43,160 bases of DNA. Origin: Acidimicrobiales bacterium (lineage in GTDB: Bacteria > Actinomycetota > Acidimicrobiia > Acidimicrobiales > VFJN01). Position 1 is the stretch's first letter. The number at the start of each line of letters is the position of its first letter. Below, piece by piece: positions 11,811-42,965 of the stretch. The position numbers and the translations under genes are program-made. The notes under the pieces are model-generated. The model saw nothing but the letters and a program-made list of their open reading frames with translations. It was not told where the DNA came from and did not search any database. The DNA is taken from contig DASSUD010000440.1 of NCBI GenBank assembly GCA_035707385.1, forward strand, positions 1 to 43,160. The letters are read 5' to 3'.

Positions 11811-11884
11811 GGGCGCGTAGCTCAGTTGGCTAGAGCGCTGCCCTTACAAGGCAGATGTCGGGGGTTCGACTCCCTCCGCGCCCA
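11811..11884 (+). tRNA. tRNA-Val (anticodon TAC)
   Basis: It folds by eye into a cloverleaf: acceptor GGGCGCG/CGCGCCC, D stem GCTC/GAGC, anticodon stem CTGCC/GGCAG with loop CTTACAA, T stem GGGGG/CCCTC with loop TTCGACT, discriminator A. No encoded CCA. Confidence 0.9.
11843..11884 (+). repeat. copy 1 of the 42-nt repeat (tRNA-Val 3' half, attL-like core)
   Basis: cttacaaggcagatgtcgggggttcgactccctccgcgccca recurs at 42924-42965 (42/42). From tacaagg onward it recurs at 31596-31637 with 2 mismatches. Confidence 0.85.
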
Positions 11885-12249
11885 CCCTTTGACCAGGGAT
11901 TTTAGTCCCACCGGCTGGAAGGCTGCGATCACCAAGACCAACGGACTGGCGCATATGCCCACTCCGGACTGTTCTCGTGGCAGGCCACAAGCGGTTCCGT
12001 CGGGGCCTGGCACTGTCGGTCGAGGCGCCGAAGGACCCGATGGGTCGACACGAACTGCGAGCGCCCCGCCAGCCGCGAAGCCCTGCTCTCCGCCTCCGAT
12101 GACGACATCGCGCTGCTCCGGGTGACGCCGCACGTCGACGAGGGTCGTTGATTTCGCGCTTGAGAAGGCCGAGGTCATCCGGTGGGTCGGTCTCCTCTCG
12201 TGCGCAAGCAAGACGGACGAGGGTCGGCGGCGTGCCGGGAGGCTGGCCG

Positions 12250-12469
12250 TCAGCGGTGCACCCACGAGCCGTGGCCGAGGTCGAGCCGGATGGACTGCAT
12301 CACTTGGAAGGTCGTGCTCTCGGTGAAGACGTCGGCGGCGGCGAGGACCCCGGTGTACTTCACGGTCGCCGAGGAACGTTGCGGTGCGTGGTGCCGACCC
12401 GGCGGCCGGGGTCAGCACCCAGCTCACGGCGGCGAGCGCCACCGGCACCGCCCAGAGGAGCCTGATCAT
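12250..12469 (-). pseudogene. small exported protein, apparently frameshifted
   Basis: Strong RBS (GGGGAGGGGG) and an ATG at 12469 encode a signal-peptide-like MIRLLWAVPVALAAVSWVLTPAAG. The high-GC3 continuation ATVKYTGVLAAADVFTESTTFQVMQSIRLDLGHGSWVHR* is in the +1 frame. The span of 220 nt is not a multiple of 3. Confidence 0.3.
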
Positions 12470-12563
12470 CACGACCACCCCCTCCCCGCCGGACACCATG
12501 CTCGGCACGCGACGCCGCGCGAAGATGGCCGCGGCCTGAGCTGGCCTTCCCGGGGAGGTACGT

Positions 12564-13226
12564 GTGGACGGAATCCACGACATGGGTGGCACCCAGGGGT
12601 GGGGCACGGTGACGATCCCGCCCGATGAGCCCGTCTTCGCCGAGCCATGGGAGGCCAAGGCGTTCGCGTTCGGTGCCCTGTCGGCCCGGTTGTCCGGCCA
12701 GAACCTCGACGCCATGCGCCATGCGATCGATCGCCAGCATCCCTACGACTACCTGGCCGATGGGTACTACGGCAGGTGGCTCGGGTGCGTCGAGACGATG
12801 CTGGTGGACAGCGGCGTGCTCGCTCCGGGAGCGGTGGTGGCGCGGGCGCGCACGCTGCGCGGCGAGGAGGTGACCGAGCCCGCCGATCCGACACCGCACA
12901 AGCCCGACTACCAGCCGACGGCCGGTGGATCTCTGCGCCAGGTCGACACGCCGCCCCGCTTCGCCGTCGGCGACCGCGTCCGAACGAGACACTACGCCCA
13001 CGCAGGCCACACCCGGCTCCCGCGCTACACGAGGGACCATGTCGGCACGGTGGCGGCGATCCATCCGGCGCAGGTCCTCCCTGACACCCACGCCCACTTC
13101 GTCGCCGAGAACGCCCAGCACGTCTACGCCGTGGCCTTCGACTCGACCGAGCTGTGGGGCGACGGCGCCGAGCCGTTCACGCTGACGATCGATCTCTACG
13201 ACGACTACCTGGAGCCGATCGCATGA
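12564..13226 (+). CDS. nthB: nitrile hydratase beta subunit
   Basis: N-terminal [14 protein letters not shown]...EPWEAKAFA is the NHase beta signature. RBS GGGGAGG lies upstream of the GTG. Confidence 0.9.
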
Positions 13227-13822
13227 CCGCGGTGCCGCGTCCCCATGACCATCCCGACGCCGCGCTCCGGACCGAGGCGTTGGAAGCGCTGCTACTGGAG
13301 CGGCAGCTCATCGACCCGAAGGTGGTCGACGGCCTGATCAGCCGGTACGAGCACGACGTCGGTCCCATGAACGGCGCCCGGGTCATCGCCAAGGCCTGGA
13401 CCGACGCCGACTACCGGCGGCGGCTGCTCGAGGACGGCACGGCCGCCATCGGCGAGCTCGGCTACTCGGGCCCGCAGGGAGAGCACATCGAAGTGCTCGA
13501 GAACACCGGCGCGGTGCACAACGTCGTCGTGTGCACGCTGTGTTCCTGCTACCCGTGGCCGGTGCTCGGCTTGCCGCCGTCCTGGTACAAGGACCCGGCC
13601 TACCGGGCACGCATCGTGCGCGAGCCTCGCCGCTTGCTGGCGGAGATGGGTCTGGTGCTCGATGACGACGTGGCGATCCGGGTGTGGGACAGCAGCTCCG
13701 AGGTGCGGTACCTGGTGCTCCCCGAAAGGCCGGAGGGCACGTCGGACCTGTCCGAGGAGGACCTGGCCGCGCTCGTGACCCGCGATGCCATGGTCGGCGT
13801 CGCCCGGGTGGCACCCCCTTGA
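13223..13822 (+). CDS. nthA: nitrile hydratase alpha subunit, cobalt type
   Basis: Metal-binding [10 protein letters not shown] (the CTLCSC Thr/Tyr variant is characteristic of Co-type NHases). The ATG overlaps the beta-subunit stop (ATGA). Confidence 0.9.
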
Positions 13823-14199
13823 GCGACCTCCCCGCCGAGCTGGCGATCAGCGGTCCCGCCGCACCGCCGCGCTCGAACGGCGAGATGGTGTTCGACGCTC
13901 CGTGGGAGAGCCGCCTGTTCGGTGTCACCATGGCGCTCGTCGAGGCGGAGCGCTTCGCGTGGAGCGAGTTCCAGCCGCGGCTGATCGCCGCCGTGCGGCG
14001 CTGGGAGGCCGAGCACCCGGACGGCGAGGGCTACAGCTACTACGAACGTTGGGCCGAGGCGCTGGAGTCCTTGTTGGACGACCTCGGCGTCGTCGCCGTC
14101 GAGACGATCGACGCGCGGGCGCTTGCGCTCGCCGCCCGTCCGGCAGGGCACGATCACCACGGGCACGGACCGGGCCCCGGCGCGCACGATGGCCCGTGA
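13819..14199 (+). CDS. nitrile hydratase accessory (activator) protein
   Basis: [24 protein letters not shown]...W.EFQ..LI resembles beta-homologue NHase activators, with a His-rich tail (GHDHHGHG). A putative TTG start overlaps the alpha-subunit stop. Confidence 0.65.
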
Positions 14200-14602
14200 G
14201 CGCCGGCTCTCGGCCGTCGTCGAGGCCAGGTGGGAGGCGGACTACCGCGCCGACATCGCGGTGCGCGACTTTCAGTTCGTCGCAGACGAGCCGCCCCGGT
14301 CCGGTGGGGAGGACGCGGGAGCGATGCCGACCGAGTACCTGCTGGTGGCGCTCGCGTCGTGCTATGCGATGGCGCTCGCCCATGTGGCGCGCAGGGACGA
14401 CGTGAGGCTCGGCCCGCTGAGAGTCAGGGCCGTCGCGACATACGACGGGCCGGCGTTCAGCGCCATCGATCTCGAGGTGGTCTTCGAACAGGGCCCGCCC
14501 GATGAGGTGGAAGACCTCGTCGCCCGCGCCTCGCGGTTGTGCTACGTCTCCAACACGTTGCGGCGGGCGCCCGACCTGACCGTGACCGTGGCGCCCGCGT
14601 AG
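14189..14602 (+). CDS. OsmC/Ohr family protein
   Basis: PTEYLLVALASCYAM and ASRLCYVSNTL are the two conserved Cys motifs of the OsmC family. Overlaps the accessory gene by 11 nt. Confidence 0.75.
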   Translation: MARERRLSAVVEARWEADYRADIAVRDFQFVADEPPRSGGEDAGAMPTEYLLVALASCYAMALAHVARRDDVRLGPLRVRAVATYDGPAFSAIDLEVVFEQGPPDEVEDLVARASRLCYVSNTLRRAPDLTVTVAPA

Positions 14603-14615
14603 CGGGAGCCAGGGG

Positions 14616-15104
14616 TCAGACGGTCCAGGTGTTGAGCTGGAACGCGCCGGCTCGCCACGCCGTGAGCGCCGAGTCGAGGACGTCGAGTGGGTGGAACGCC
14701 TTGACGCCGGGGATCAGGTCATCCTCCCGGAAGCCGTACAACGCGCCCATGGCGAACCGGCACGCATGGACCGTGGCGCCCTCCTTGAGGAGGGTCTTGA
14801 TCTGGTTGTTGATGGCGAGATGGCCGGGGAATGCCTCCTGCCCGACCGAGGGATAGCCGCGGGTACCCGATGCCAACAGGACACCCGGCCCATACAGCAC
14901 GATCGTGACGTCGAAGCCCTTGCGGACGAGGCGGGTCGCGGTCAGCAGGTTGACGAGCGCGACCGAGCCTTCGTAGGGCACGGTGTGGATGAAGACGAAC
15001 GCCTTTTCGCCCGGCTCGGCCTGGATGTCCTCGAACACCTTCTCCTCGGTGTCGAAAAGGGTCTCGCCTTCGTCGGGAAGCGGTACTTGCACCGTCTTTG
15101 GCAC
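14616..15104 (-). CDS. DsrE/DsrF-like family protein (possibly MSMEG_0572/Sll0783-type)
   Basis: 162 aa. FVFIHTVPYEGSVALVNLLTATRLVRKGFDVTIVLYGPGV...GATVHACRFAM resembles DsrE-like folds. The subfamily is not verifiable by eye. Confidence 0.55.
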   Translation of the reverse strand: MPKTVQVPLPDEGETLFDTEEKVFEDIQAEPGEKAFVFIHTVPYEGSVALVNLLTATRLVRKGFDVTIVLYGPGVLLASGTRGYPSVGQEAFPGHLAINNQIKTLLKEGATVHACRFAMGALYGFREDDLIPGVKAFHPLDVLDSALTAWRAGAFQLNTWTV

Positions 15105-15146
15105 CTGGTTCTCCTTCTGGTCAAGGTGACTACGGGTTGGTGGCTG

Positions 15147-15407
15147 TTACACGGCTGGGCCCAGGGGATGGCGGGCACGCGGCGTCCATGTCTTGCGATG
15201 GCTGCCGGGCATCGACTGGAGGACGAACGAACGGAAGCGCCACGGCAGCCGCCGGTAGACGGGCGCGAACACCAGGAGGAAGAACCTCCCCTTGACGCCT
15301 TCGTGGGGTCGAGGGCACTCGTGGTCATGGCGCGCCGCGACCTCCCGCTGCGCGGCCATCAAGAGGTAATGCTCGGAGTTCGTGCGGAGCCAACGGGCGA
15401 ACCTCAT
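15147..15407 (-). CDS. small hypothetical protein (86 aa)
   Basis: The ATG lies 5 nt after the upstream oxidoreductase stop. High GC3. Sits between two co-oriented genes. No motif recognised. Confidence 0.4.
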   Translation of the reverse strand: MRFARWLRTNSEHYLLMAAQREVAARHDHECPRPHEGVKGRFFLLVFAPVYRRLPWRFRSFVLQSMPGSHRKTWTPRARHPLGPAV

Positions 15408-15412
15408 GGTCG

Positions 15413-16741
15413 TCAGAGGTTCGCGAGGGCGTTCTGGGCGGCGAGCGCGATCGGTTCGTTGAGCGCGCCGATCGGGGGCGAGTACACGTTCTCCATGTAG
15501 GCAAGGTCGTCGAGGGTGATGCCGGTCTTGACCGCCATGGCCAGGAAGTCCGCCCGCTCCTTGATGCCTTCCTGGCCGACCATCTGGGCGCCGATGAGCC
15601 GCAGCGTCTCCGGCTCGGCCAGCAGCTTCACCTTGAGGGTCTTGACGCCGGGGTAGTAGCGAGCGCGCGAGATGCCCTGGGCGACGCCCATCACGTGGGG
15701 GATCCCGAGTGCCTTGGCCACCGTCTCGCCGTAGGCGACGCCGCCGATCATCCAAAGCCCCGCCACCATCCCCCACGGCACGTACACCGGCTGGTACTCA
15801 CGCGTGCCCCCCCCGGCGTTGATCCCGGCCACCTTCCCCTGGGCGTACGCGTGAGAGCCCGAGAGCCCCTGCACGGGAAGGTTGCCGACGCCGAGGGGCA
15901 CCTCGACGCAGTCGCCGCACGCGAACACCGCGTCGGCGTTGGTGCGCATCCGGTTGTCGACGATGAACCCCCCGGTCGGTCCGGTCACGAGGCCGGCGGC
16001 GGTACCCAACGAGGTGTTCGGCACCTTCTTCGTGCAGACGACGGCGATGTCGGCGGGCAGGTCGCCGGCAGACGTCTGGACGGCGTTGATCCTGGGCCCG
16101 CCGAGGAACGCCTCGAGCCTGACGCCGTAGTGCATCTTGACGCCCAGCTCGGTCCAGGACTCCTCGACCGGCTGGGCGATGTCGGGGTCCGCCAGGTCGC
16201 TGAGAGCCCAGGGGCGGTGATCGATGACGTGGGTCTCGATCCCCCGATGGGCGAGCGCGGTGACCATCTCCAGCCCCAGCGGGGTGGCCTCGACCACGAC
16301 GGCCACCTTGACCTCGTCGAGGACCTTGTCCCACTCCATGGCCCGGCGGATGTTCTTGACGTAATAGAGGCCCTCGAGGTCGGTGCCGGGCACCCCCGGG
16401 TCGGCGTAGTCGAACCCCGTGGCGACGATCAGGCGGTCGTAACCGACGTCTGCCTGCCCGTCGACTCCCACCGTGCCGGCCTTCAGGTCGAGGGCTGCAA
16501 CCGGGGTCTCGTAGCGGATGTCGATGCCCTGCTCGACATAGGCCTCCTTGGTGGCGAGGAACAGAGCCTCGAAGCTCGCGATCTCCTTGCCGTGGACGTA
16601 GGGGATGCCGCAGGGGCTGTACGCGGCGTCCTCGTACTCCGTGAAGACGATGACCTCACCGTCGGGCTGAGCGCCCTTGAACGCACCGGCGGCGCCGATC
16701 CCTCCCGCGCCGCCGCCGATCACGACGAGCCTCGGTGCCAT
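15413..16741 (-). CDS. FAD-dependent pyridine nucleotide-disulfide oxidoreductase (CoA-disulfide reductase / NADH oxidase-like, single-Cys class)
   Basis: N-terminal VVIGGGAGGIGAAG FAD fold, redox Cys in AAYSPCGIPY, a second dinucleotide fold VVVEATPLGLE, and CGDC near the C-terminus. The start is at MAPRLVV, preceded by gaggggg. Confidence 0.85.
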   Translation of the reverse strand: MAPRLVVIGGGAGGIGAAGAFKGAQPDGEVIVFTEYEDAAYSPCGIPYVHGKEIASFEALFLATKEAYVEQGIDIRYETPVAALDLKAGTVGVDGQADVGYDRLIVATGFDYADPGVPGTDLEGLYYVKNIRRAMEWDKVLDEVKVAVVVEATPLGLEMVTALAHRGIETHVIDHRPWALSDLADPDIAQPVEESWTELGVKMHYGVRLEAFLGGPRINAVQTSAGDLPADIAVVCTKKVPNTSLGTAAGLVTGPTGGFIVDNRMRTNADAVFACGDCVEVPLGVGNLPVQGLSGSHAYAQGKVAGINAGGGTREYQPVYVPWGMVAGLWMIGGVAYGETVAKALGIPHVMGVAQGISRARYYPGVKTLKVKLLAEPETLRLIGAQMVGQEGIKERADFLAMAVKTGITLDDLAYMENVYSPPIGALNEPIALAAQNALANL

Positions 16742-16805
16742 CGACACCCCCTCGAGATCCGACGAGCGCAGCGCCCGCTCCGGCCCGGCTGAGGCGTCTA
16801 CCATA

Positions 16806-16839
16806 GAACACGTGCGTCGTACTTTGCTACGAAGTGTTC
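16806..16839. promoter_or_regulatory. nested inverted repeat abutting the XRE-cupin start codon
   Basis: GAACACgtgcgTCGTActttgcTACGAaGTGTTC: outer arms 6 bp, inner arms 5 bp. Located in the divergent region between the oxidoreductase operon and the regulator. Confidence 0.3.
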
Positions 16840-16840
16840 G

Positions 16841-17479
16841 ATGACCGTACCGAAGCGTTCGGAGACCGCAACGACCGAGCCGGACGCCGACGAAAGCGGT
16901 CCCGGGGCAAGTGGGCTCCACGAGATCGTGAGCTCCATCGGGCCGAAACTGCGAGAGCTGCGGCTCCAGCGGGGGATGTCGCTCCAGCAGCTCGCCGCCC
17001 AGTCGGACGTGTCCGCCGCCGCCATCCACAAGATCGAGCGCGGGGGCATGGTGCCGACGATCACCACGCTCCTGAAGATCGCCGTGGCGTTCAACCGGCC
17101 GGTGTCGTACTTCGTCGAGGAGCAGATCGGCGAGAATCGGCCCGTCGCCCACATCCGGAGCGACGACCGTGGCCCGATCTTCACGGCCCACAGCGGCATC
17201 GAGCTGGCCGGCATCTCCGGTCCCTACGGCCGCTTCTTCCTCGCCGGCGCGATCGCCACCGTGCAGCCGGGAGCCAGCAGTGGCGACAAGCCGATGGAGC
17301 ACCCCGGTGAGGAGCTGATCCTCGTGCTCGACGGCACGTTCGAGGTCGACGTCGACGGCCAGCACTTCGCCTTGGCGGAAGGGGACTCCCTCCACTTCCG
17401 CACCGATCGGCCCCACCGCTGGCACAACGCCGGTACGTCGCCGATCAAGGCGGTGTGGCTGGCGCTGCGCCCGTTCTGA
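16841..17479 (+). CDS. XRE-family transcriptional regulator with C-terminal cupin domain
   Basis: HTH LRELRLQRGMSLQQLAAQSDVSAAAIHKIERG, then cupin-like HPGEELILVLDGTFEVDVDG...GDSLHF. Confidence 0.8.
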   Translation: MTVPKRSETATTEPDADESGPGASGLHEIVSSIGPKLRELRLQRGMSLQQLAAQSDVSAAAIHKIERGGMVPTITTLLKIAVAFNRPVSYFVEEQIGENRPVAHIRSDDRGPIFTAHSGIELAGISGPYGRFFLAGAIATVQPGASSGDKPMEHPGEELILVLDGTFEVDVDGQHFALAEGDSLHFRTDRPHRWHNAGTSPIKAVWLALRPF

Positions 17480-17500
17480 GCGCGCGGTCGACGGGGCAGT

Positions 17501-18928
17501 TCAACGACCTGACACGGCGCGGTCGAGCGCCATCACCGCGTCGACGAAGCACGTCAGAGGCGCCTCCGCGACGCCGGCGCCGACCTGCCCGGCACCGGCC
17601 GACGCGTGGAGGACGCCGGTGGTGATCTTGGGCGTGATGCCCAGCTCGGCGACACGGCGCGCGTCAACGCCGAGGGGCGTGCCCCGGAGGTCGAGGAGGG
17701 GGATGCGCAGGCGGGTGCTGCGACCGGCGCAGACGAGGTCGAGCTCCTCGGTGGTCGCGCGCGCGTCGGCCATCGTCCCGCCGACGAAGGCGGCCACGGC
17801 CGGCGAGCCGGCGGCGGCCGCGGCGCCGAGGCCAACGAGCTCGAGCACCGCGCTGTCGCCGACGTCGGGCGCGGCGGCTTCGGGGCCGTAGTCCGCGTAG
17901 TACAGCGCCTGGCCGACGGCGGGTGCGGGCGCCAGATGCCAGCTCGGCGACCCGGCGAGGCCCACGGCGAACTCCGTGCCGTTGCGCGTCATGGTGGTGA
18001 CGATCGACGAGTGGGGGACGTCCATCGCCCAGCCGGTCAACGCCCGGGCCGCCGCCATCGCGACGTTCAGGAAGAAGAGGTGGTTGCCGGCCAGGAAGCG
18101 AGCGAGGTCGGTACGCCGCGGATCGTCGAGCCCCGCCAGATGGGGGAGCAGGTCGCGCAGCATCAGGTTGGTGCTCCCCTGCAGACGGATGTGCACGTCA
18201 TCGCCCATGTGCAGGCCCTGTGCCGCGATGTTCATGACGTCGAGGGGCCCGTGCGAGCGGACGGCGTCGTCGAGGAGCGGTCCGGCGACCGCAGCCAGGA
18301 ATCGCAGCCGGTCGATCGCGGCGCGCGTGTCGCGGCCGAACCATGCGGTGTCGCCCGGTCCCTGGTTCAGCGGCGCGAACGCACGGTTACCGCCGGCCGC
18401 GTTCTCGACGATCCAGACCGGCTGCGACGGCCCGAAGGCCGTGACCATGGGCACGCACGCGTCATGCCGGTTCGCCGGCTCGAGCCCGACCCGGCCGCCC
18501 GCGAGCAGCCGGTCGGCACTATCCGTCTCGTCGGCCCAGCCCTCGGCGACCACGGCGGCGCGCATCGAGCGGCGCAGGGGATCGATGGCGTCGGCATAGT
18601 CGATGGGTGGCCCGCAGTGGAGAAGTGTCGTGCCCTCGAAACCGGGCACGACATCTGCGGCGGTGCGGACGCCGACGGCGCGGGGGGCGCCGCTGTCGAG
18701 GCGCCTGAGGACCTCGGCGTTGGCCGCGTCCACCGCGGCGGACATCGGCCCGTAGAGGCGAGCCAGGGCAGCGACGACGTCGGGATCGCCCCCGCCGGGG
18801 ATCCGCCAGTCGACGTCGACCACCTCGAAGCCCTGCCGGGCGACCGCGTCCGCGAACAGCGACAGCCCGATGTTGACGACCCGTGCCCTCTCGGGCAGCG
18901 ACGGGGCGTCGTCGCCGCCGGTGGTCAC
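17501..18928 (-). CDS. DUF1116 family protein (YlbE-like)
   Basis: 475 aa. VNIGLSLFADAV..QG..VV.VDWRIPGGGD, LLHCGPPI, MVTAFGPSQPVWIVENAAGGN and AQGLHMGDDVH resemble the E. coli YlbE family. Confidence 0.75.
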   Translation of the reverse strand: MTTGGDDAPSLPERARVVNIGLSLFADAVARQGFEVVDVDWRIPGGGDPDVVAALARLYGPMSAAVDAANAEVLRRLDSGAPRAVGVRTAADVVPGFEGTTLLHCGPPIDYADAIDPLRRSMRAAVVAEGWADETDSADRLLAGGRVGLEPANRHDACVPMVTAFGPSQPVWIVENAAGGNRAFAPLNQGPGDTAWFGRDTRAAIDRLRFLAAVAGPLLDDAVRSHGPLDVMNIAAQGLHMGDDVHIRLQGSTNLMLRDLLPHLAGLDDPRRTDLARFLAGNHLFFLNVAMAAARALTGWAMDVPHSSIVTTMTRNGTEFAVGLAGSPSWHLAPAPAVGQALYYADYGPEAAAPDVGDSAVLELVGLGAAAAAGSPAVAAFVGGTMADARATTEELDLVCAGRSTRLRIPLLDLRGTPLGVDARRVAELGITPKITTGVLHASAGAGQVGAGVAEAPLTCFVDAVMALDRAVSGR

Positions 18929-31595: not shown

Positions 31596-31637
31596 TACAA
31601 GGCAGATGTCGGGGGTTCGAGTCCCGCCGCGCCCACC
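31596..31637 (+). repeat. copy 2 of the tRNA-Val 3'-half repeat (diverged, attR-like junction between islands)
   Basis: tacaaggcagatgtcgggggttcgaGtcccGccgcgcccacc: 40/42 identical to 11845-11886. The two changes fall in the T-loop and T-stem, so it is not a functional tRNA. Confidence 0.8.
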
Positions 31638-32045: not shown

Positions 32046-32075
32046 TTGGGGTTCACCGCCCGTCGAGCGCTTCGC

Positions 32076-32315
32076 TCAGTGGCGCGCCATGGCCCGCACG
32101 TCGTCGAGGCGCGGGTCGAGCGCCTTTGGGTCACTGGGATCGAGGAGACAGATCGGTCCCGTCTCGTGCCGTTCGACCCTGCCCTCGAAACCGATGATCT
32201 GCTCTGGCTGCCCGGGACCGCCGCCTGTGATGCGGTCGAGGTTGCGGTCGATCGCCTGGCCGTACTCGTGGATGCGCGGGTGACGGTCCTCTCGATCGAA
32301 GATGACACTGAGCAT
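32076..32315 (-). pseudogene. gene fragment (79-aa ORF, probably the 3' part of a frameshifted gene)
   Basis: MLSVIFDREDRHPRIHEYGQAIDRNLDRITGGGPGQPEQIIGFEGRVERHETGPICLLDPSDPKALDPRLDDVRAMARH*. Protein-like sequence continues upstream in another frame (HMLADPTDHHGVHLNAGISTITDADA). Confidence 0.35.
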
Positions 32316-32499
32316 CGGCGTCGGTGATGGTCGAGATGCCGGCGTTGAGGTGCACACCGTGGTGGTCGGTGGGGTCGGCGAGCATGTGGCCGGGAGACGG
32401 CCTGCTTTGTCACCACGGTCTGTGGTTGAATGTCGGCGCGGCGGAAGTTGACGGTGGATCGAGCCCTTCGCCAGTAGCGCCAGTGGACGGGAGGCGCGC

Positions 32500-35400: not shown

Positions 35401-38400
35401 GCCACCGCGGTGCTCGCCCTCGAATCGCGCGACGGCGTCACCGGCGTGCTCGTCGGAGTCGACGTCGAGTTCCCGGCGCCGCTGCCGCTCGGCAACTCCG
35501 GGCTCGGCATCTACGGGTTCCTCGGTGGTGTCGGCGCGAACTACGCGCGCAACGAGGCACCACACGCTGGCAGCCAGGTGCCGGCGCTCGACTGGCTGAC
35601 TGCGCAGCTGCCACGCGTCGGTGGCGTCATGGACCCGACCGGCTGGACGTTGACGCCGGGCTCGTACGCGTTCGCCGCCGGCCTGCTGCTCGGAACCGTC
35701 GACGGCGGCTTCGTCGTGCACCTCAAGGGCGTGGTGCTGATCGAGGTCCCCGGGCCGCGGCTGTTGCTGATCATGAAGGCCGACGTCTTGAAGATGCCGC
35801 CGGTACTCAAGAGCGCCAGCCAGAACGCGACGTTCCTCGCCGTCCTCGACATCGACTTCGGGCGGGGGACGATCACCCTCGGCGTCGTCGCCACCTACGA
35901 GATCCGCCGCCTGTTGAAGATCCGCGTCCCGGTCACGGCGTTCTTCGACACGCAGCACCCGGAGAACTGGCTGGTCGACCTCGGCACCTACAACGACCGG
36001 GTCACCGTCGAGGTGCTCGACGTGATCACCGGTACCGGGTACCTGATGGTGCACGGCAACGGGCTGAGCATCCCCGGCCTGCCGCCGGTGACCGGCGGGA
36101 TGGCCATCGGCGTCGGGTTCCACATCAGCTGCATCCTCATGGGCAGCCGCAGCGCGGGCCTCTACCTCGAGGTGGCTGCGGGCTTCGACGCCATACTCGG
36201 GTTCGACCCCTTCTACCTGGCCGGCAAGATCTACGCCCGCGGCGAGCTCCGGTTGTTCATCGTGAGCATCGGTGTCAGCGCCGAGCTGGAGGTGATCGTC
36301 GGCCGGGTCTCCCAGACGAGCCCGGACATCACCTACGTCCATGGCGAGGTGTGCGGGAAGGTCGACTTCTTCTTCTTCTCGGTCAAGGGGTGCGTGTCGC
36401 TGACGATCGGCTCGAAGCCGGCGGCCCCGGCGACCCCACCGCTACTGGTCGCGGGGGTCAGCCTGGTCAGCCGGTCCCCGGCCCTGCTGGAGGGGACGGC
36501 CACCGATCGGGCCGTGGACGGGAAGCTGGGCGACGCGCCGGAGGACGGTACTAGCGGCACCCGCCCGTCCGTGCCCCTCGACGCCGTGCCGGTCATCGCG
36601 TTCTCGTCCGCGCCCGTTCTGACCGGGACCGCGCTGGGCGGGACGCCGGTGGGCAGCTCCGGCGCCCCGGCCGGCGGTTGGGTCCGCCTCGGCGACCGGT
36701 GGTGGACCTACGAACTGGTCGACGTGACGCTCGTCGGCAGGCTGACGGCGGGGTCGACGCCCAGCGCGTGGTGGGCGGCGCCGAACACCGACCCCGCCAG
36801 GGCGCCGTCACTTGCCCTGCTCAGCTGGCTTCCGACGCCGTTCAGCCGCGCCGTCCCCTATGGCGAGGCGCTCACGGAGATCGTCACCGGAAGCTGGGGG
36901 ACGGTGTGCAGCGACCCGGCGCCGCCCGCCCCCGTGCTCTGGACCTTCGACTACCAACCCCTGGGGCCCAGCCCCGTCGGCTGGCTGCTGCACGGCGTGC
37001 CGTGGCCAGACCCCCCTGGCACGGTCCGTACCGCCCCCGTCGACGGCGACGCACTCGTAACCGAGCCGTGGCGCTGCGGCGATGCGGCCATCGACCTGCT
37101 GGCCGGCACCGCGCCGGCGGTGGTCGTCGGCGACTCGGTGCGCTGCGGCGAGAAGCCCGACCGCGGGCTGCTCACCGATCCGATCGCGGCGATCAAGGGC
37201 TTCGGAGGACTGCCCGGCGCCGGGTTGGCCCACGACCACGCCGCGTTCCTCGCGATCACCGAGGCCGTGGCCAGCGGGGTCTCGGCCAGCGACCTCGCCG
37301 CGGCGGAGCAGGCCCAGCGGTGGGACCCGCGCGCGGCGAGGGACGACCACAGCTGCGACGGGCGCATCCTGCGCTCACCCGAGCTGGAGTCGGGCGAGCC
37401 GGCGCCGCTCGGCACACCCGAAGACGCCGAGCGGGTGAAGCAGGCGTGGGACGAGCTGGGCCATGTGCCCCACCGCCTTCGCGACGCCGTCCGCCTCACG
37501 GCCGAGGGCGGGCTCAACGGGTTCGGGTTGCTGCTGCTCGTCCCCGAGGAGCTGTTCGTCGAGCGCCTCATCGTGCTCTACGAGGACGCCGCCGGCGGCG
37601 GCGTTCACTCGCGTCCGCTGAGCTTCGACGACCGGGTGTCGCCGGCCAACCCGCTGCCCGGCGAGTGGCTGGACGCGGACGGGCCGTGGGCAGATCCGGT
37701 ACTGCGGGCCCTCCAGGTCGCCGCCCGGGTCGCAAGCGACTCCTGGCTGCAGCAGGCGTACGTCTTCATCCGCGACGAGGACCTGCCCGACGAGGTCACG
37801 TCCGTGGTCATCGGCTGGGGCGGCGACCACTTCCGGCGGGAGGTCGCACCGGCGTTTCACGTCGTGGCCGCCACCGGCGAGCTGGCCAGCGAGCGCTGGC
37901 GGTCTTCCTGGGACGACGAGGTTGTTAGCAGCAACCAGAGCGCGCTCAGCACGGTGCTGAGCCAGGACCCGGATGACCACGCGCTGTTCACGACGGGCAC
38001 GCAGTACGCGGTCGAGGTCACCTGGCGAGCGGCTTCGCTCCAGTCCGACACCCGCCCCGGTGCGGGCGTGACACCGAGCTTCGGGGCGAACAGGACGCAG
38101 CGCTTTCGTTTCACCGCCGACGGCTCCGACCAGGCGCCCAAGGACCTCGCTCCCTGGCTCCTGGCCACAGCACCCGGGCAGGGTGAGACGGGGGTGTTCC
38201 GCGCGGAGCCGATCCGGGTCGCGCTCGCGACGCAGAACGTCGCCGCCCTGTTCGATGCCTACGGCGAGGAGCTGCTCGTCGTCGTGCACTCCGCATCGGG
38301 CAAGCACCCGGCGCCGCCGGGGGGTTCGCCCGGCTCGGCGTTCACCATCCCGCTCGCTGTCGACGGCGTCCACCTCAAGGGTCTCATCGCCCTCACGGTG

Positions 38401-39183
38401 ATGACGCCCTGGGAGGAAGCGGTTCGCGAGGTGGCGGGCACGCTGGGATGCATCGACGGGTCGGGCACCTACACGCACCACCAGGTGCTCGAGCTGCCGT
38501 ATGACTTCGAACCGCTCACCGACTACCTGCTGGACATCCACGCCGTGTCCAGCGGCGGCTCGGCCACACACCAGAACCTGGTCCATCGCGTGCCGTTCAC
38601 GACAGGCCGATTCTTCGACGAGGGCCAGTTGGCCGAGCTGGTCCGTACGGCCGCCTGGGAGCACACGGTGGTCACGAACCCGGCGGCCCTGGCGGCGCTA
38701 GCCGAGCGGCCGACCGGTGACCAGCTCGACGCGGCGTTCCAGGCCGCGGGCCTTCGAGCCCCGCTGGCGCCGAGCCTGCCGCTGGTGCAGGTGCTGTGGA
38801 ACGCCGACGCCGTACCGCAACCCGTGGCGGTAGTGGTGGAGGGCGCCGAGCCTCTGTGGCGCAGCCGTGACCTCCCGGTCGTGGTGCCCGGCCCCGCGGA
38901 TGCCTCGGACCCGACCCACCGCTGGTGGGCGACCCGGCCGCAGGAGTGGCTGGCCCTGCGGGCGAGCAGCGCGGGTGGCACGTTGCCGGCGGCCGCGGTG
39001 ACGCGGATCGTGCGGGGGCCTGGGGCGACGCGAGCGGTCGTGGTGCTGGGTCCCAGCAGCCGCGGCGCCGAGCTGCGGCTGGACCTGGTGCGGGCCGCCG
39101 ACCCGTTGGCGGGCACGGCGGCATCGGCGGTGGCGGCGCTGAGGCTCCCGTTGCGGGCGGCGCCCTGGGAGTTCGAGGAGTAG
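32500..39183 (+). CDS. giant hypothetical protein (2227 aa) with a degenerate OmpA-like segment
   Basis: Uninterrupted 6.7-kb ORF with uniformly high GC3, and RBS GGGAGG 6 nt upstream of the ATG. I saw no signal peptide, Walker A, or nuclease/peptidase motif. OmpA_C-like LTVRGYASFEG...HNEALSVRRRDALIALL lies at about aa 505-545. Confidence 0.85.
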   Translation: MTLWDQLPAPAQNNGAAEGVRPLLEALDANHDGVATEDDGSWDRWSASGTWPTPVSFDPGAGGFTANAVNASTPLEFPDPAVGVEVGLHLDAGGNPDGGWRVTLEVPKVIVRLPFLRGADLDAQGQLRANGQTVRFTLPALRIRAKQLTGQSVGVELLSATITNPPVDQLYELIRMEPPYALIGPSDVVGFAFRTAVLDLTGEAGPDGVPPGARAMPTDWQGLWLPEARLFVAPTGLDGLAVSAGVRDLWIGFGIHAGVTGIFEAEVVNRGGTPTLNASFRTATGRWIPAPATGAVLLPAQTTLFVDAHGGIAPVTVSIDIGGTVTTADRVDVAVPAAGAVTITITATDGGGHVTTRTFDVSREAATPPGGSPGAMTTLAPTSTGAHQMVLVSQTTTEAVLRLEPEVAANWSWPGGSAPSATSATVPIAAAGDFTVTATITAVAPTVIDAFFVFDKPAGWADDLARDRWASTGDNMHTGPAGSRTRPGNSSTLASTLPGRLAQLGAGTALTVRGYASFEGFDDDPHRQHNEALSVRRRDALIALLRASGFTSLNAATSTGHAMARDGTSIDGTTPAPPPGDARWWRARAITATTGPETITGRLRRPAPPATTNTDPAPPATGRPDCFRQLGVRVELLRSTFIRAELYGQFDIETAAETALRHRGQPPLRQGPRNPMEGVCDFLVRLRVAADRESWLVSAELRAAEGDLDGLAMMDESRANPTALDVLGALAILAPLSSATAELSPAAGTLVALGSLTLGGAGLIDTKQLILRGAEVVVSQGIIAADGSSTVDARGTQVSVLLDIETAFTFDLGIVRVDPAHPVTTRYKAIGVRSSWNTAPGPGGQVDYLPIPVFDPSRGYTLDIPTGALSASPPLDELLRILGFRVSRDNPTFVEVEVGLGVDLGIVDVESVRVRARIDGPPFDITLTKLVASLEVPGVLHGRGSLEFTPLGFKGAFDLTVVPLNIRATAVLALESRDGVTGVLVGVDVEFPAPLPLGNSGLGIYGFLGGVGANYARNEAPHAGSQVPALDWLTAQLPRVGGVMDPTGWTLTPGSYAFAAGLLLGTVDGGFVVHLKGVVLIEVPGPRLLLIMKADVLKMPPVLKSASQNATFLAVLDIDFGRGTITLGVVATYEIRRLLKIRVPVTAFFDTQHPENWLVDLGTYNDRVTVEVLDVITGTGYLMVHGNGLSIPGLPPVTGGMAIGVGFHISCILMGSRSAGLYLEVAAGFDAILGFDPFYLAGKIYARGELRLFIVSIGVSAELEVIVGRVSQTSPDITYVHGEVCGKVDFFFFSVKGCVSLTIGSKPAAPATPPLLVAGVSLVSRSPALLEGTATDRAVDGKLGDAPEDGTSGTRPSVPLDAVPVIAFSSAPVLTGTALGGTPVGSSGAPAGGWVRLGDRWWTYELVDVTLVGRLTAGSTPSAWWAAPNTDPARAPSLALLSWLPTPFSRAVPYGEALTEIVTGSWGTVCSDPAPPAPVLWTFDYQPLGPSPVGWLLHGVPWPDPPGTVRTAPVDGDALVTEPWRCGDAAIDLLAGTAPAVVVGDSVRCGEKPDRGLLTDPIAAIKGFGGLPGAGLAHDHAAFLAITEAVASGVSASDLAAAEQAQRWDPRAARDDHSCDGRILRSPELESGEPAPLGTPEDAERVKQAWDELGHVPHRLRDAVRLTAEGGLNGFGLLLLVPEELFVERLIVLYEDAAGGGVHSRPLSFDDRVSPANPLPGEWLDADGPWADPVLRALQVAARVASDSWLQQAYVFIRDEDLPDEVTSVVIGWGGDHFRREVAPAFHVVAATGELASERWRSSWDDEVVSSNQSALSTVLSQDPDDHALFTTGTQYAVEVTWRAASLQSDTRPGAGVTPSFGANRTQRFRFTADGSDQAPKDLAPWLLATAPGQGETGVFRAEPIRVALATQNVAALFDAYGEELLVVVHSASGKHPAPPGGSPGSAFTIPLAVDGVHLKGLIALTVMTPWEEAVREVAGTLGCIDGSGTYTHHQVLELPYDFEPLTDYLLDIHAVSSGGSATHQNLVHRVPFTTGRFFDEGQLAELVRTAAWEHTVVTNPAALAALAERPTGDQLDAAFQAAGLRAPLAPSLPLVQVLWNADAVPQPVAVVVEGAEPLWRSRDLPVVVPGPADASDPTHRWWATRPQEWLALRASSAGGTLPAAAVTRIVRGPGATRAVVVLGPSSRGAELRLDLVRAADPLAGTAASAVAALRLPLRAAPWEFEE

Positions 39184-39185
39184 CC

Positions 39186-42100
39186 GTGGCGAGGACAGCG
39201 GACTCCTGGCGGTTCCGGGCCCGGGCGGAGCGGCTCTCTTGGACGACCAAGGCGCGCGAGCAGCTGGCCCTCATCACCGCCGTCGGCGCGGACGCTGGCT
39301 TCTGGGCAGAGCACCTCAAGCGACTCAGCGGGCGCTTCGATGAGGACATTCGGTTGATGTGGACGTGTTCGCCCGAGCTGGGTGTGCCGCGCGGGCCGTT
39401 CACGGTGTGGTCGCGCAAGCCGAGCGATGCGCTCGAGGAGGTCGACGTCACCATCCTCGGTGGTGCTTCGCCCGTGCTGTGGTGGGGCGGGGTTGAGGCG
39501 GCGTGCGTCGAGGTCACGTGTGAGCCCTTGAGCGGCAACCGCCCCGTCGGGCTGCTGCTGTTCCGCAACGGTGGCGAGCCGCGCCACGTCGTGTCAGCCG
39601 GCGCGGTCGACCCCGGCGGCGCCAACGTGGTGACGATCCGCGTCCGCACGCCTGGCGCGACCTTCGCCCGCCTCGTCGACGGCTTCAACCCGAGCGTGCT
39701 GATCGACCCACTCAGGACGGTGGTGAACGACGACAGTTGGCAGCCGATCGAGGTCGTCGGCCTTCCGGTGGATCAGCCATGGAACGGCACGATCTACGAC
39801 AGCTCGCCGCAGGGCCTCGTCGGGGCCGAGGTCGCCCCGCACGACGCGGCCGTCGACCGCCTGCGGCGGGGCGGCCCGCGAGTGGGCTGGTGGCCTATCA
39901 CCGAAACGGCCCGGACTGCGCCGTGGTGGGAGGCCCCTGACTCGGGCCGCCTCGTGAAGGAGGTCCGTGACCAGCTGTTGTCCGAGATCCTGCCCCTGTA
40001 CGACGGCGTCGCCGGGGAGCAGGAGCAGGCAGCACTGACGGACCTGCGAACGGTCGACGGCCCGAGCCAGGGCGGCAATACCTCGACGCTGGCCACGACG
40101 GCCGACGTCGGCCCCTGGGCCAAGCTCGTCCTCCCCGCGCTGAGCGACCCGTTCCTCAACCTGGCCTGCGGCTTCGGTACCGCGTACCCCGTGGAGGGAA
40201 GGGACACGCCGCCGGTAGCGGGTCATGACTTCCTCGTGACCGCGACGTACTCGCAGGTGCCGTTCCCGATGGACAGCGAGGAGGTGGCGGCCTACGCGCC
40301 GGCGGCCGCATTGCACCTCGCGGTGCCGGATCCCGCCGGCCTGGCGGCCGAGCGCCGGGGGCTGGTCGCCCCGCCAGTGCCGGACGCCACATGGCGGGAG
40401 TCGATCCGCCTCCGTTGGCAGCGGGTTGAGCCCACGGCGAGCATGCCGCCGATCACCGAGGCCGCCCTCGCGATCTACGAAACGTGGGGTGGCGGCGACG
40501 CGTCGTCGCTGTTGCCCGAGCGAGACGCGGGCGGCCCCCGGCCCTTCCTCATCGGAGCCGAAGCGCCCGAGGGCCAGCCGGGAAACGACCGGATCGCGCT
40601 CGTTCACGGTGAGGCCGAGATCCCCAACGGCAGCGGCGGGAGAGACGTCGGCTACGCGGTCGCGGTCAGCGACGTATTCGGCATCTGGTCCCGCTGGCAG
40701 GACGTGCGGTGGCGCGGGGACGAGCCGCTCCCGCTACCGCCCCGCATCGTGGCCGTCTCGCTGTCGACGACCTACGCCGGCTCGACGGCCTGCCCGGCCA
40801 CACTCGCAACCGAGATCGCGGTGGAGTGGCAGGAGCGCACGCCGACCTACGTCGATGTCGTCGCCCTCTTCTTCCCGATGGCCACGGCGACGACGGCGCC
40901 GCCCGCGGGCCTCTCGCCCGACCTGTCGCTCCCGGCCGGCTGCTTCCGGCGCGACCTCGCGCTGGGCTTCGTCGGCGACTCGCCGATCCCGTCGGGCTGC
41001 ACAGTGACTCCGCTGAACCCGGCTGGGGACGCGGCGATGGCGCCGGGGCCGGGCCAGGGCAACGGCGGCCGGCGCTACCGGCTGCGCGCCAACGTACCGA
41101 CGCTGGACTACGCCAGCGTCGGCCGTTGGGGCGTCCAGCTGTTCACACGGCGGGAGCTCGTCGTCGGGCCGACGCTCACGGCGTGGGGACCGCCGGCCAC
41201 CCACCCTGCGCTGGCCTCGGCGGCCAGCCCGGTCCCGGTCCTGCCCCTGCCGCCCCCGGCGCCGCCGGGCGTCCCCCTCGGGAGCACGCTCGACGCCGAC
41301 GGGCGCTCACACGTCCGCGTGCACTGGTCGCTGCCCTCGGGCGACGTGCGGACCTGCATCGTGTGGGAGGCGTCGGAGACCGCGCTGCGCCAACGGGTGG
41401 GGCTGCCCCCGCGGGCGCCGGACACAGACCCGCCCGGGGTGCGGCTGGCCGAGCTATGGAACCGCTACGACGCCATGACCCCAACCGCCCGGCGGGCCAC
41501 GTTCCGACGGCTGGCCGAACTGCCGAGGACGGCACGGCAGCACGACGTCGCCCTCCCCAAGGGATCGACCGACATCCACCTCTTCGTAGTCACGACGATG
41601 ACCGGCTCCGGTGTGGAGTCGCCCTGGCCGGGCGGCGCGACACCGCACGAGCACCTGCAGGCGGTCATCGCACCCCGCCTGCTGCAACCCGGCCCACCAA
41701 CCGTCGCGCCCGACTTCGATGAGGCGGGAACGGTCACGATCCAGTTGCGCAGCACCGGCGCCATCCCGGTCGACCGCGTCCGCCTCTACCGCACGCGCTC
41801 CGAGGGGGCGGCCCGCAAGGTGGAGACGATGGGACCAGCCTTCGCCGACGTCGGCGCCGTGGTGGTCTCCGGCCTCACGGATCCGGTCCTGCGCACGCCC
41901 GTGTACGAAGCGGTCTGGACGGGCCTCGTCCCCGGGCACTGGGACCCGTGGCTCATCCGGGCCGTCGCCGTCCCGCCGCACACGCTGCCCGTGCAGGGCG
42001 TGCGGGGGCTCCCATCGCCGGCCAGTGACGTCGTGTCGCTGCTCGTTCCGCCTGCGCATCCACCGACCCTGGAGCCGCTGCTGGCGGAGGTGTGGGGCGC

Positions 42101-42770
42101 GGACCACCGAGGCGTGCTGGTCCACACGGCGACGACGGCGCCGCCCCGCACGTCTGCGGTGGGCACGCACACGCTGTCCGCCAACGCAGGCGCGCAGGTC
42201 CTGGCACCGGTCGGGATCGAGGCATTGGACGAAACGGCGCTCACCAGCCCGCCCGCGGCGGCGTCGGGGTCGGTGGTGCTGGAGCGGGGGGTGCGGTCGA
42301 ACGGCCGGTCTCCGTTAGCGCTCTGGTTCACGCGCCTCGTCGCCGGCGACGCGGTTACCGTCGCCATCCGCATCGCCGACCCGTTCGGGCGTGTGTCCGA
42401 GCACACGATCACGGTGCCCGGTTGGGTGCCGCCCCCGCCGGTGAACATCCGAATCACCGACGTGTTCGCCGTCGCCGGCCGGGGCGTCGGCATGACGTTC
42501 GAGACGGACGCCTCGGACGAGATGGTGCTGGAGGTCAACGCCGCGCAGCGCTTGGCGCAACCCTTCCCGCCGCCCCGCCGCCTGTCCGTGCGGGGCCTCG
42601 TCGGCGACGTCCCGAACCGCCCGCCGCTTTTCCCCGGCCGCCCGGGCATCCAGGTCGCCCGGTCAGGTGGCGAGTACTCGGCCTTCGTCCCGCTCACCTC
42701 ACCGGTCGCGATCGAGGTCGCCATCGAAGCCCCCGACGGCTCCCGCGTCACCGACACCGCCTCGGGCTGA
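39186..42770 (+). CDS. giant hypothetical protein (1194 aa), tightly coupled to the 2227-aa gene
   Basis: The GTG lies 2 nt after the upstream TAG. Continuous high-GC3 ORF. Several beta-sandwich-like segments (HVRVHWSLPSGDVRTCIVWEASE; GTVTIQLRSTGAIPVDRVRLYRTRSEG). No catalytic motif recognised. Confidence 0.8.
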   Translation: MARTADSWRFRARAERLSWTTKAREQLALITAVGADAGFWAEHLKRLSGRFDEDIRLMWTCSPELGVPRGPFTVWSRKPSDALEEVDVTILGGASPVLWWGGVEAACVEVTCEPLSGNRPVGLLLFRNGGEPRHVVSAGAVDPGGANVVTIRVRTPGATFARLVDGFNPSVLIDPLRTVVNDDSWQPIEVVGLPVDQPWNGTIYDSSPQGLVGAEVAPHDAAVDRLRRGGPRVGWWPITETARTAPWWEAPDSGRLVKEVRDQLLSEILPLYDGVAGEQEQAALTDLRTVDGPSQGGNTSTLATTADVGPWAKLVLPALSDPFLNLACGFGTAYPVEGRDTPPVAGHDFLVTATYSQVPFPMDSEEVAAYAPAAALHLAVPDPAGLAAERRGLVAPPVPDATWRESIRLRWQRVEPTASMPPITEAALAIYETWGGGDASSLLPERDAGGPRPFLIGAEAPEGQPGNDRIALVHGEAEIPNGSGGRDVGYAVAVSDVFGIWSRWQDVRWRGDEPLPLPPRIVAVSLSTTYAGSTACPATLATEIAVEWQERTPTYVDVVALFFPMATATTAPPAGLSPDLSLPAGCFRRDLALGFVGDSPIPSGCTVTPLNPAGDAAMAPGPGQGNGGRRYRLRANVPTLDYASVGRWGVQLFTRRELVVGPTLTAWGPPATHPALASAASPVPVLPLPPPAPPGVPLGSTLDADGRSHVRVHWSLPSGDVRTCIVWEASETALRQRVGLPPRAPDTDPPGVRLAELWNRYDAMTPTARRATFRRLAELPRTARQHDVALPKGSTDIHLFVVTTMTGSGVESPWPGGATPHEHLQAVIAPRLLQPGPPTVAPDFDEAGTVTIQLRSTGAIPVDRVRLYRTRSEGAARKVETMGPAFADVGAVVVSGLTDPVLRTPVYEAVWTGLVPGHWDPWLIRAVAVPPHTLPVQGVRGLPSPASDVVSLLVPPAHPPTLEPLLAEVWGADHRGVLVHTATTAPPRTSAVGTHTLSANAGAQVLAPVGIEALDETALTSPPAAASGSVVLERGVRSNGRSPLALWFTRLVAGDAVTVAIRIADPFGRVSEHTITVPGWVPPPPVNIRITDVFAVAGRGVGMTFETDASDEMVLEVNAAQRLAQPFPPPRRLSVRGLVGDVPNRPPLFPGRPGIQVARSGGEYSAFVPLTSPVAIEVAIEAPDGSRVTDTASG

Positions 42771-42841
42771 GCCCTGATCGATCGGTGCCCCAGCGCCCTG
42801 GCGCTCGACGAGCACCCGTGACCCTGACATGCCAACATCCT

Positions 42842-42882
42842 GCCAACGGTGATCCGGTCAACATGGGCATCAGGGCGTGCCA
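42842..42882 (+). repeat. island-end conserved block, copy B
   Basis: gccaacggtgatccggtcaacatgggcatcagggcgtgcca; see 31500-31539. It is surrounded by further GYCAAC (42831, 42857, 42913) and GGTGATC (42848, 42893) reiterations. Confidence 0.5.
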
Positions 42883-42923
42883 CGTGGCGCGCGGTGATCG
42901 ACAAATGCCGTGGTCAACCGCCA

Positions 42924-42965
42924 CTTACAAGGCAGATGTCGGGGGTTCGACTCCCTCCGCGCCCA
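42924..42965 (+). repeat. copy 3 of the tRNA-Val 3'-half repeat (exact, distal att-like site)
   Basis: 42/42 identity to 11843-11884. It starts in the anticodon loop and ends at the discriminator base. The upstream sequence is unrelated to the tRNA 5' half. Confidence 0.85.

Follow-up and report, generated by a model that had tools for sequence, protein, structure and literature searches.

A 43,160-base contig from the metagenome-assembled genome (MAG) of an uncultured Acidimicrobiales bacterium, obtained by short-read metagenome assembly and analysed here in its entirety (the window), carries a tRNA-Val(TAC) gene followed by two further direct copies of the 3' half of that gene, with the three copies bounding two blocks of DNA which we refer to as islands 1 and 2. 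We conclude that these are probably at least two tandem islands inserted serially into tRNA-Val(TAC) by a phage-type tyrosine integrase, and that they have since decayed and are most likely fixed. Serial site-specific integration into the tRNA 3' half had been proposed in a sequence-only reading of the same DNA, and it is supported here by the attachment-site arms that accompany the repeats, by the islets found at the same tRNA in related genomes, by two soil assemblies in which island 1 has a different neighbour, and by the vestige of an integrase gene. Contigs and loci from other assemblies are given below as L numbers and integrase proteins as P numbers.

Repeat copies and attachment-site arms at tRNA-Val

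ARAGORN and Rfam agree that the window contains only one tRNA, tRNA-Val(TAC), and a repeat search together with direct reading of the sequence bore out the earlier claim that its 3' half occurs three times in direct orientation, with all copies on the + strand and the second and third showing 89% (over 45 nt) and 98% identity to the first (Table 1). Copy 3 matches the tRNA gene at 42 of 42 positions from the anticodon loop to the discriminator base (42924–42965, as had been reported), and an exact 42-nt repeat cannot have arisen by chance in 43 kb. Copy 2 matches at 40 of 42 positions (31596–31637 aligned to 11845–11886) with both mismatches in the T arm. These mismatches had been recognised before, in a register shifted by 2 nt that was otherwise right, but a further difference at the 5' edge of this copy, within the anticodon loop (CTCTACAA compared with CTTACAA in the tRNA gene), had been missed. 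The core copies are spaced 19,751 and 11,330 nt apart, in line with the intervals of about 19.7 and 11.3 kb given earlier, and island 1 extends from 11887 to 31593 and island 2 from 31639 to 42923. The array may continue past the end of the contig, and two islands should be read as a minimum.

A chimeric MAG contig in which different strains had been joined at the shared 45-nt repeat would also place unrelated blocks side by side, and the short-read metagenome source, a contig end only 195 nt past copy 3 and the alternative junctions seen in other samples could all be read in this way. However, assemblers typically finish with k-mers longer than the repeat (45 nt, or some 120 nt when the diverged arms are included), and tRNA–N and R–core junctions of the kinds described below occur in many independent assemblies including long-read MAGs. 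The junction of island 1, copy 2 and island 2 is also reproduced in assembly L042, with 99.975% identity over 15.7 kb across copy 2 and an identical copy 2 sequence, though L042 was possibly built from the same reads as the window and is not certain to be an independent confirmation. We consider an assembly artefact to be extremely improbable.

The repeats do not stand alone, as both distal copies in the window are preceded by a conserved P arm of approximately 105–120 nt (module R), which is also found before every distal copy in L003 (twice), L007 and L012 and in 17/17 Joint Genome Institute (JGI) metagenome contigs matching the R-junction-plus-core pattern. An alignment of 20 distinct R modules showed highly conserved blocks alternating with variable spacers, with the similarity starting abruptly about 105 nt before the core regardless of the upstream gene. 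Of the 22 R arms with sufficient length for scoring, 17 have the motif GCCAAC (background rate 0.43 per kb) at both −103 and −92, a separation of 11 nt, and a further three keep one of the two sites. In the window these sites are shifted, with one at about −96 before copy 2 and two at about −95 and −84 before copy 3.

Past the core, P' arms at the left ends of elements have (G/A)CCAAC near +42 and/or +54. The P' arm of island 1 forms the first part of module N (about 190 nt), which was detected in the window at 11890–12074 (nhmmer, E = 1e-36) and shows conserved P' site offsets of +42 and +54 across loci; N also follows the core in L001, L008, L009, L012, L013 and several metagenome contigs, and is found after copy 2 in L015, behind an integrase-bearing element. 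The P' arm of island 2 is of another type (variant X), which shares 82% identity with the sequence flanking L003 copy 1 and is also present in L062. Lambda-like integrases characteristically bind arm-type sites that take the form of phased direct repeats in both arms, and by analogy the repeats in R and P' are putative arm-type sites that the integrase would have recognised.

Both attL and attR are retained, as each island has a core copy with a P' or P arm at either end, and several of the sites are partly degenerate. The first site has been lost from the P' arm after copy 1 and the second from the P' arm after copy 2; in the P arm of island 1 the partner site has been mutated to GCGAAC and there are small insertions near the core, and the P arm of island 2 keeps both sites and has a 12-nt deletion adjoining the core. 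Our summary count is of a changed overlap region in copy 2 and a damaged site or deletion in three of the four arms.

Module N follows the tRNA in six loci and was considered as its native chromosomal flank; we rejected this, as the genes behind N have no shared synteny, N follows R–core junctions inside arrays, and it carries phased arm sites and encodes the start of an integrase. A known RNA in R or N was also rejected, with Rfam finding only the tRNA.

A third element may follow copy 3. The sequence there starts with the common post-core motif GGTCAGAGGCG, and nhmmer detected neither module N nor module B (the latter from a second element family described below) at E < 0.01. Past this motif there is a weak resemblance to a degenerate P' arm (GGAAGCTTCAACCCCAGAGCCGAAT).

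Table 1. Features of the tRNA-Val(TAC) array in the window and of related elements in other assemblies (positions are those of the window unless a contig is named).
Feature	Position	Strand	Basis or remark
tRNA-Val(TAC), intact gene	11811–11886	+	ARAGORN; Rfam RF00005, 72.6 bits; left end of the array, attL of island 1
Core copy 1, tRNA anticodon loop to 3' end	11843–11887	+	Repeat family D2; sequence read
Core copy 2, junction of both islands	31594–31638	+	Altered anticodon-loop sequence, two T-arm mismatches
Core copy 3, exact 42-nt match to tRNA 3' half	42924–42968	+	Sequence read
P' arm of island 1, first part of module N	11887–11976	+	Arm-type site ACCAACGG at 11937–11944; first site degenerate
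P arm (module R) of island 1	31472–31591	+	nhmmer R, E = 1e-25; GCCAAC at 31500–31505
P' arm of island 2, variant X	31639–31700	+	GCCAAC at 31677–31682; second site degenerate (CCACGTG)
P arm (module R) of island 2	42813–42922	+	nhmmer R, E = 9e-26; GCCAAC at 42831–42836 and 42842–42847
Tyrosine-integrase vestige, first ~25 codons	11971–12050	+	VAGHKRFRRG..LSVEAPKDP; in ORF 11977–12102, with indels
Sequence after copy 3	42969–43160	+	Starts with GGTCAGAGGCG; ORF start at 43093
Island 1 cargo, ~20 genes	12564–31319		Pfam, NCBIfam; gene calls of near-identical contigs L042, L044–L046; ORFs checked for stops
Two small ORFs of island 2 (53 and 79 aa)	31884–32045; 32076–32315	−	Called in L042
Island 2 cargo module	32314–42790	+	2227-aa DUF6603 protein 32500–39183; 1194-aa protein 39186–42770
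Family B members	L015 10581–11943; L059, L064, L065; L003 18702–19298		
Single-gene cassette, DUF4389	L063 10–1178		1.1 kb
Single-gene cassette, patatin–DUF3376	L055 841–4437		3.5 kb
Single-gene cassettes, BTAD–nSTAND1–WD40 (1411 aa) and cyclase–AAA–LuxR (1095 aa)	L054 608–4978; L058 2683–6342		
ORF, open reading frame; aa, amino acids.

A vestigial integrase and its relatives in phage-like genomes

The sequence-only reading had found no recombinase on either strand, and this holds for any functional gene. Pfam scans found no Phage_integrase domain in any of the called genes of the window, the Pfam and NCBIfam results include no recombinase, excisionase, transposase, relaxase or transfer gene among them, and a six-frame regular-expression scan of the window did not find the catalytic motif of tyrosine integrases. 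The integrase homology check that had been suggested, made by tblastn of the window with five integrases (the B-type integrase of L015, P0087, P0090, P0093 and P0105), returned no match beyond the overlap with the tRNA. What the earlier reading did not see is the vestige of an integrase N-terminus of about 25 codons in island 1, which was found only by using a profile of N-terminal integrase fragments (hmmsearch, E = 4e-5) and has homologues in the fragments P0066–P0086 and the full-length proteins P0090 and P0093. The tRNA-proximal end of island 1 had been described as holding only degraded or small ORFs, and this has to be amended, since a P' arm and an integrase start are present there. No such vestige was detected in island 2.

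The ORF following module N in L012 matches Phage_int_SAM_3, and a database search with it produced 21 clusters, all of which are N-terminal fragments with differing end points or a frameshifted continuation. Full-length relatives of 380–390 aa with all catalytic residues were recovered by a profile search of 1.8 billion representative proteins, and two of the proteins identified, P0090 and P0230 (387–391 aa, with Phage_integrase), the closest of the full-length integrases, are encoded in temperate-phage-like genomes which also carry repressor/Cro-like helix-turn-helix (HTH) genes, an HTH_17 excisionase-like gene, AAA_24, Gam and DNA methylases. In the 345 nt before these int genes, a P arm is followed by a tRNA 3' half, two TCCAACCG repeats and the start of int (attP at L069 1296–1640 and L075 1–151). 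The tRNA half is a different one, Ser-like with the anticodon loop CTGCTAA, a long variable arm, a T arm and an acceptor. This is the same layout as the R–core–P'–int stub seen at tRNA-Val and points to a phage-type attP–int unit as the ancestral module, and from the sequences the arm-binding specificity seems to have been conserved while the core target differs between the tRNA-Val arrays and the phage-like attP. A progenitor phage specific to tRNA-Val was not found in IMG/VR, where there was no R-type junction, one unrelated tRNA-Val half and no relative of P0087.

We therefore propose a history in which the islands would have been inserted in succession at the anticodon-loop/3'-half att site of tRNA-Val(TAC), each being at the time an element that ran from a core through a P' arm with two CCAAC sites, the int gene, the cargo and a P arm with two GCCAAC sites to a second core. 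Each insertion would have rebuilt the tRNA and displaced one 3'-half copy, and deletions would later have removed int and any backbone genes while the cargo and arms were retained, leaving island 1 with the first 25 or so int codons and island 2 with none, and the two islands fused into one 31-kb block. Only the outer copies 1 and 3, which are identical over 42 nt, may still recombine if a related integrase were provided in trans, and this would excise the 31-kb composite in the manner of a cis-mobilisable element (CIME). The earlier reading had left two alternatives, with the islands either immobilised or dependent on a recombinase encoded elsewhere, and these were the right two to consider. 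The changed overlap region of copy 2, the damaged arms and the missing integrase favour fixed, fused islands.

The tRNA-Val locus in relatives and competing explanations

A scan for the DUF523 protein in species-representative genomes produced 40 loci, mostly from Acidimicrobiales MAGs, in which the block inositol phosphatase–NUDIX–sigma–DUF523–tRNA-Val is conserved (DUF523–tRNA-Val synteny is found in L001–L032). Within 10 kb downstream of tRNA-Val in these loci we found none of the island genes of the window. In about 15 related genomes the upstream synteny is kept and the downstream islets differ, some having a tyrosine integrase adjoining the repeat, and several relatives share another downstream block starting 2–7 kb past the tRNA. 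Five relatives have additional direct copies of the tRNA 3' half which bound islets of 1.6–8 kb with unrelated cargo (methyltransferase, IclR, aquaporin and phosphotransferase system (PTS) enzyme I; AraC and an ECF sigma factor; PhoX; TraB and MazF). The closest relative, L015, has a tyrosine integrase directly after the tRNA and reading towards it, split by one frameshift that is possibly a long-read error, and a truncated homologue of this integrase follows the third copy in L003. The variable downstream content and the integrases seen in these relatives indicate that the tRNA-Val site is a hot spot where integrases occur.

The L015-type integrase belongs to a second family of elements (family B), which have the same core and other arms, with the repeat TCCATCGCGCG at +59 and +70 and once in the right arm. 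The family B integrase is highly conserved (HDLRRANATGLVAEGVDIKTAQALLGHSN) and reads towards the core, and these elements are often found directly after an R–core junction (6/17 metagenome hits). Other metagenome contigs have short cassettes between or after R–core junctions with one gene each (Table 1), several of which resemble the kinds of genes found in conflict or defence islands.

Polymorphism at the array itself is seen in two soil assemblies, L050 (ERZ1758598) and L051 (ERZ1823575), which are 99% identical to the window from island 1 through N and the core. The matches stop at 11834 and 11840, respectively, and to the left of this the place of the tRNA 5' half is taken by an R arm which shares 95–98% identity with that preceding L003 copy 3. 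What lies to the left of island 1 thus differs between near-identical copies of it, with the change falling at the core edge, and this counts against the repeats being tRNA pseudogene duplications unrelated to insertion, which the sequence-only reading had named, together with a lack of polymorphism among relatives, as what would overturn its proposal. That reading had also suggested a search of related strains for polymorphism, and it is in the neighbour of island 1 that this was found.

A separate difference was observed between two MAGs (L005 10638–11908 and L008 10638–11831) which are about 93% identical on both sides of a segment of approximately 1.2 kb after the tRNA. The segment differs between the two, with module N in one only and no second tRNA-half copy, and here a replacement next to the tRNA has left no repeat.

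Some of these data might suggest that the islands are active non-autonomous elements, comparable to CIMEs, to pseudo-staphylococcal cassette chromosome (pseudo-SCC) elements or to integrative elements exploiting the host Xer recombinase (IMEX), and belong to a family of cassettes without integrase genes that an integrase of their family, resident or incoming and supplied from another part of the genome or by a temperate phage, still inserts and excises, with tRNA-Val serving as a cassette platform. About 15 R/N-type elements all lack an intact integrase, and conservation is nonetheless much stronger in their arm sites than in the spacers between them; single-gene units of 1.1–3.5 kb have complete R–core–P' junctions (L063 and L055); array composition differs between strains sharing island 1 at 99% identity; and environmental sequences do include intact integrases of this family. 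Against this, the overlap of copy 2 is altered and three arms are damaged in the window, the integrase fragments end at many different points as would be predicted for independent decay, and no helper integrase specific to tRNA-Val was found among the proteins we recovered, with P0090 and P0230 using a different tRNA core. The difference seen in L050 and L051 requires only that the other element moved, and not island 1. We regard it as unlikely that the islands are active in this sense. A broader proposal is that tRNA-Val(TAC) in the soil Acidimicrobiales is an integron-like platform for gene capture, built from a lambda-type integrase and a tRNA target, at which integrase-less units as small as one gene of about 1 kb and as large as a 20-kb cluster, each having a complete attP-like junction of some 350 nt plus an int stub, are stacked, exchanged and spread by an integrase that temperate phages or a resident element provide in trans, and of which the window would hold two large members. 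We think this decidedly unlikely and advance it only tentatively.

The same junctions of about 350 nt could act as portable homology, allowing RecA-dependent exchange or unequal crossing-over after DNA uptake to shuffle, duplicate or delete the intervening segments. Their length is sufficient for RecA and they are repeated along the arrays, the observed breakpoints would also coincide with the ends of homology, and the cargo modules are found in other contexts where there are no att sites. Homologous recombination could shuffle arrays in this way, but it would leave the origin of the repeats, the arms with their phased sites and the canonically placed int vestige unexplained, whereas all three match an intact phage attP–int module. 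The start of the repeat also coincides exactly with the anticodon loop, where tyrosine integrases usually place their crossover (PMC4383910). We consider it very unlikely that homologous recombination is the explanation for these islands.

Serial integration by a now decayed integrase remains our preferred explanation, and several observations weigh against it. The right-hand chromosomal flank lies beyond the contig end, which leaves the native attB flank out of view and makes two islands a lower bound; only the copy 2 junction is confirmed by a second assembly (L042, perhaps from the same reads); and neither an exact empty site nor a single-island state for these two islands, both of which the earlier reading had proposed to look for, was found in the collections, where the closest relatives are other species. 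The cargo modules occur elsewhere at 86–96% identity and without att sites, and they may have entered the att-bounded frame through some other form of recombination. Finally, arm sites are strongly conserved across about 20 integrase-less elements, and continued use of the family in trans could be the reason; this would weaken the description of such elements as fossils in general, and not for the damaged sites of the window.

Island cargo and comparison with known systems

Upstream of the tRNA the window has ordinary chromosomal genes (FGGY kinase, P450, sigma factors including one of the principal type, inositol monophosphatase, NUDIX, epimerase and DUF523). The comparison of island and flank composition suggested earlier showed that the islands are lower in GC (0.72 compared with 0.75 upstream) and in GC at third codon positions (GC3; 0.91 compared with 0.95) and are similar to the upstream region in tetranucleotide usage, which fits donors from the same broad lineage.

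Island 1 encodes the beta, alpha and accessory proteins of a nitrile hydratase, OsmC, an MSMEG_0572/Sll0783 family protein, a disulfide oxidoreductase, an HTH–cupin regulator, AllG, two lyases of the aspartase/fumarase superfamily (one ASL-like), a pyridoxal phosphate (PLP) enzyme, an XcbA family protein (328 bits), ComA, an AIR-synthase-like protein, GNAT, an MSMEG_0568-family radical SAM protein, a carbamate kinase, an AllF/FdrA-like CoA ligase and a GT4 glycosyltransferase. The bacterial coenzyme M pathway used for comparison (PMC9457059) has five protein families, and all are represented here, by ComA/XcbB, the XcbA-family NF052538, the two lyases and the PLP enzyme. Beside these coenzyme-M-like genes lie a CoA-disulfide-reductase-like oxidoreductase, the nitrile hydratase operon and MSMEG_0568/0572 (Nit1C-like) genes; the whole set lies at 18925–24344, with 24373–27576 and 12564–14199. 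The coenzyme-M/nitrile hydratase cluster was found in at least six other Acidimicrobiales contigs; elsewhere it is 86–89% identical, in contigs including one of 550 kb, with different flanks and no tRNA fragment within 8 kb, and the homology stops some 50 nt ahead of the nitrile hydratase gene. A short ORF on the − strand (12250–12470) that lies between the int vestige and the operon for nitrile hydratase has a signal-peptide-like start (MIRLLWAVPVALAAVSWVLTPAAG...) and appears to be frameshifted, and the GenBank numbering implies one annotated protein in the gap around it.

Island 2 holds two small ORFs with no match in Pfam, NCBIfam or PADLOC, followed by a pair of giant genes. The DUF6603 protein has no match beyond the Pfam DUF and none in NCBIfam, PADLOC or the Protein Data Bank (PDB), and a literature search for DUF6603 returned no papers; the 1194-aa protein has no family match in Pfam, NCBIfam, PADLOC or PDB. 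An OmpA-like motif was seen by eye in the DUF6603 protein. We dropped a defence-system or structural identity for the giant proteins after PADLOC, NCBIfam and PDB sequence searches came back empty. The giant-gene module is 96% identical in L043 (634–11108) and 90% identical in L041 (9959–17891), in other contexts and without tRNA fragments. Contigs of about 11 kb with the giant genes were considered as circular forms of island 2 and rejected, as they represent the two-gene module in other genomic contexts. In L041, a C-terminal remnant of a tyrosine integrase (9058–9354), 35% identical to residues 283–375 of P0105, lies directly upstream of the DUF6603 gene, and this suggests that the giant-gene pair at one time travelled behind an intact integrase. 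As both cargoes are found elsewhere without att sites, the att-bounded frame and the cargo have partly separate histories.

Comparison with established systems helps to place these islands. They resemble integron arrays in being promoter-poor, integrase-less units that each end in a recombination site, with single-gene units in related loci, and differ from them in that IntI, attI and attC hairpins are absent, the sites are attP-like, about 350 nt long and have arm repeats, and the units descend, according to the vestiges, from elements that once had an integrase of their own. Composite SCC and pseudo-SCC arrays at staphylococcal orfX (rlmH) include cassettes which depend on the recombinase of a neighbour, and are alike in having serial cassettes parted by direct repeats of the target 3' end, some without recombinase genes; these use serine recombinases (Ccr) and a protein-gene target, in contrast to the tyrosine integrase, arm-type sites and tRNA target of the arrays described here. 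Nor do the islands look like prophage remnants, as no residual structural, replication or lysis genes of a phage were seen and all of the cargo is metabolic or of unknown function (according to Pfam and NCBIfam; PHROGs was not run).

Islander lists tDNA islands, among which anticodon-centred attP is the commonest class (PMC4383910), and tandem ssrA islands of Dehalococcoides are a further case of serial islands at one tDNA (PMC3146451). The window shares with Islander's islands an intact tRNA, displaced direct 3' fragments, an anticodon-centred attP and several islands in series. However, Islander accepts an island or array member only when it has its own integrase gene (PMC4383910), and neither island in the window has one. 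The closest parallel is with CIMEs and tandem accretion at att sites, as described for ICESt1 and the CIME of Streptococcus thermophilus and for pathogenicity islands of Streptomyces, where the sequence of integration, decay to a CIME and further accretion is known for both streptococcal and Streptomyces islands (PMC5704250). As in CIMEs, the integration and transfer genes have been lost, attL and attR have been kept, and the elements are in tandem at a tRNA 3' end. In contrast, the ancestral integrase would be of the temperate-phage type and not from an integrative and conjugative element (ICE), conjugation genes were not seen, the window has no functional partner element, the middle att site is mutated and the host is an uncultured member of the Acidimicrobiales. 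We class the islands as integrase-less, CIME-like elements derived from a phage-type attP–int module at a tRNA-Val hot spot, and so as a known kind of element in a little-studied lineage.

Fixation of acquired genes through the loss of an integrase is a well-known route, met here in uncultured soil Acidimicrobiales which acquire and fix large sets of genes, including a complete-looking coenzyme-M set and a pair of giant proteins, at a single tRNA-Val hot spot served by at least two integrase families. Island finders that require an integrase miss such arrays entirely, and the conserved R and P' arms offer a sequence handle with which they can be found in metagenomes. If the integrase-less units still move in trans, then the tRNA-Val site would be a natural platform for gene capture, and if they do not, then these arrays would reflect the ordinary decay and domestication of genomic islands.

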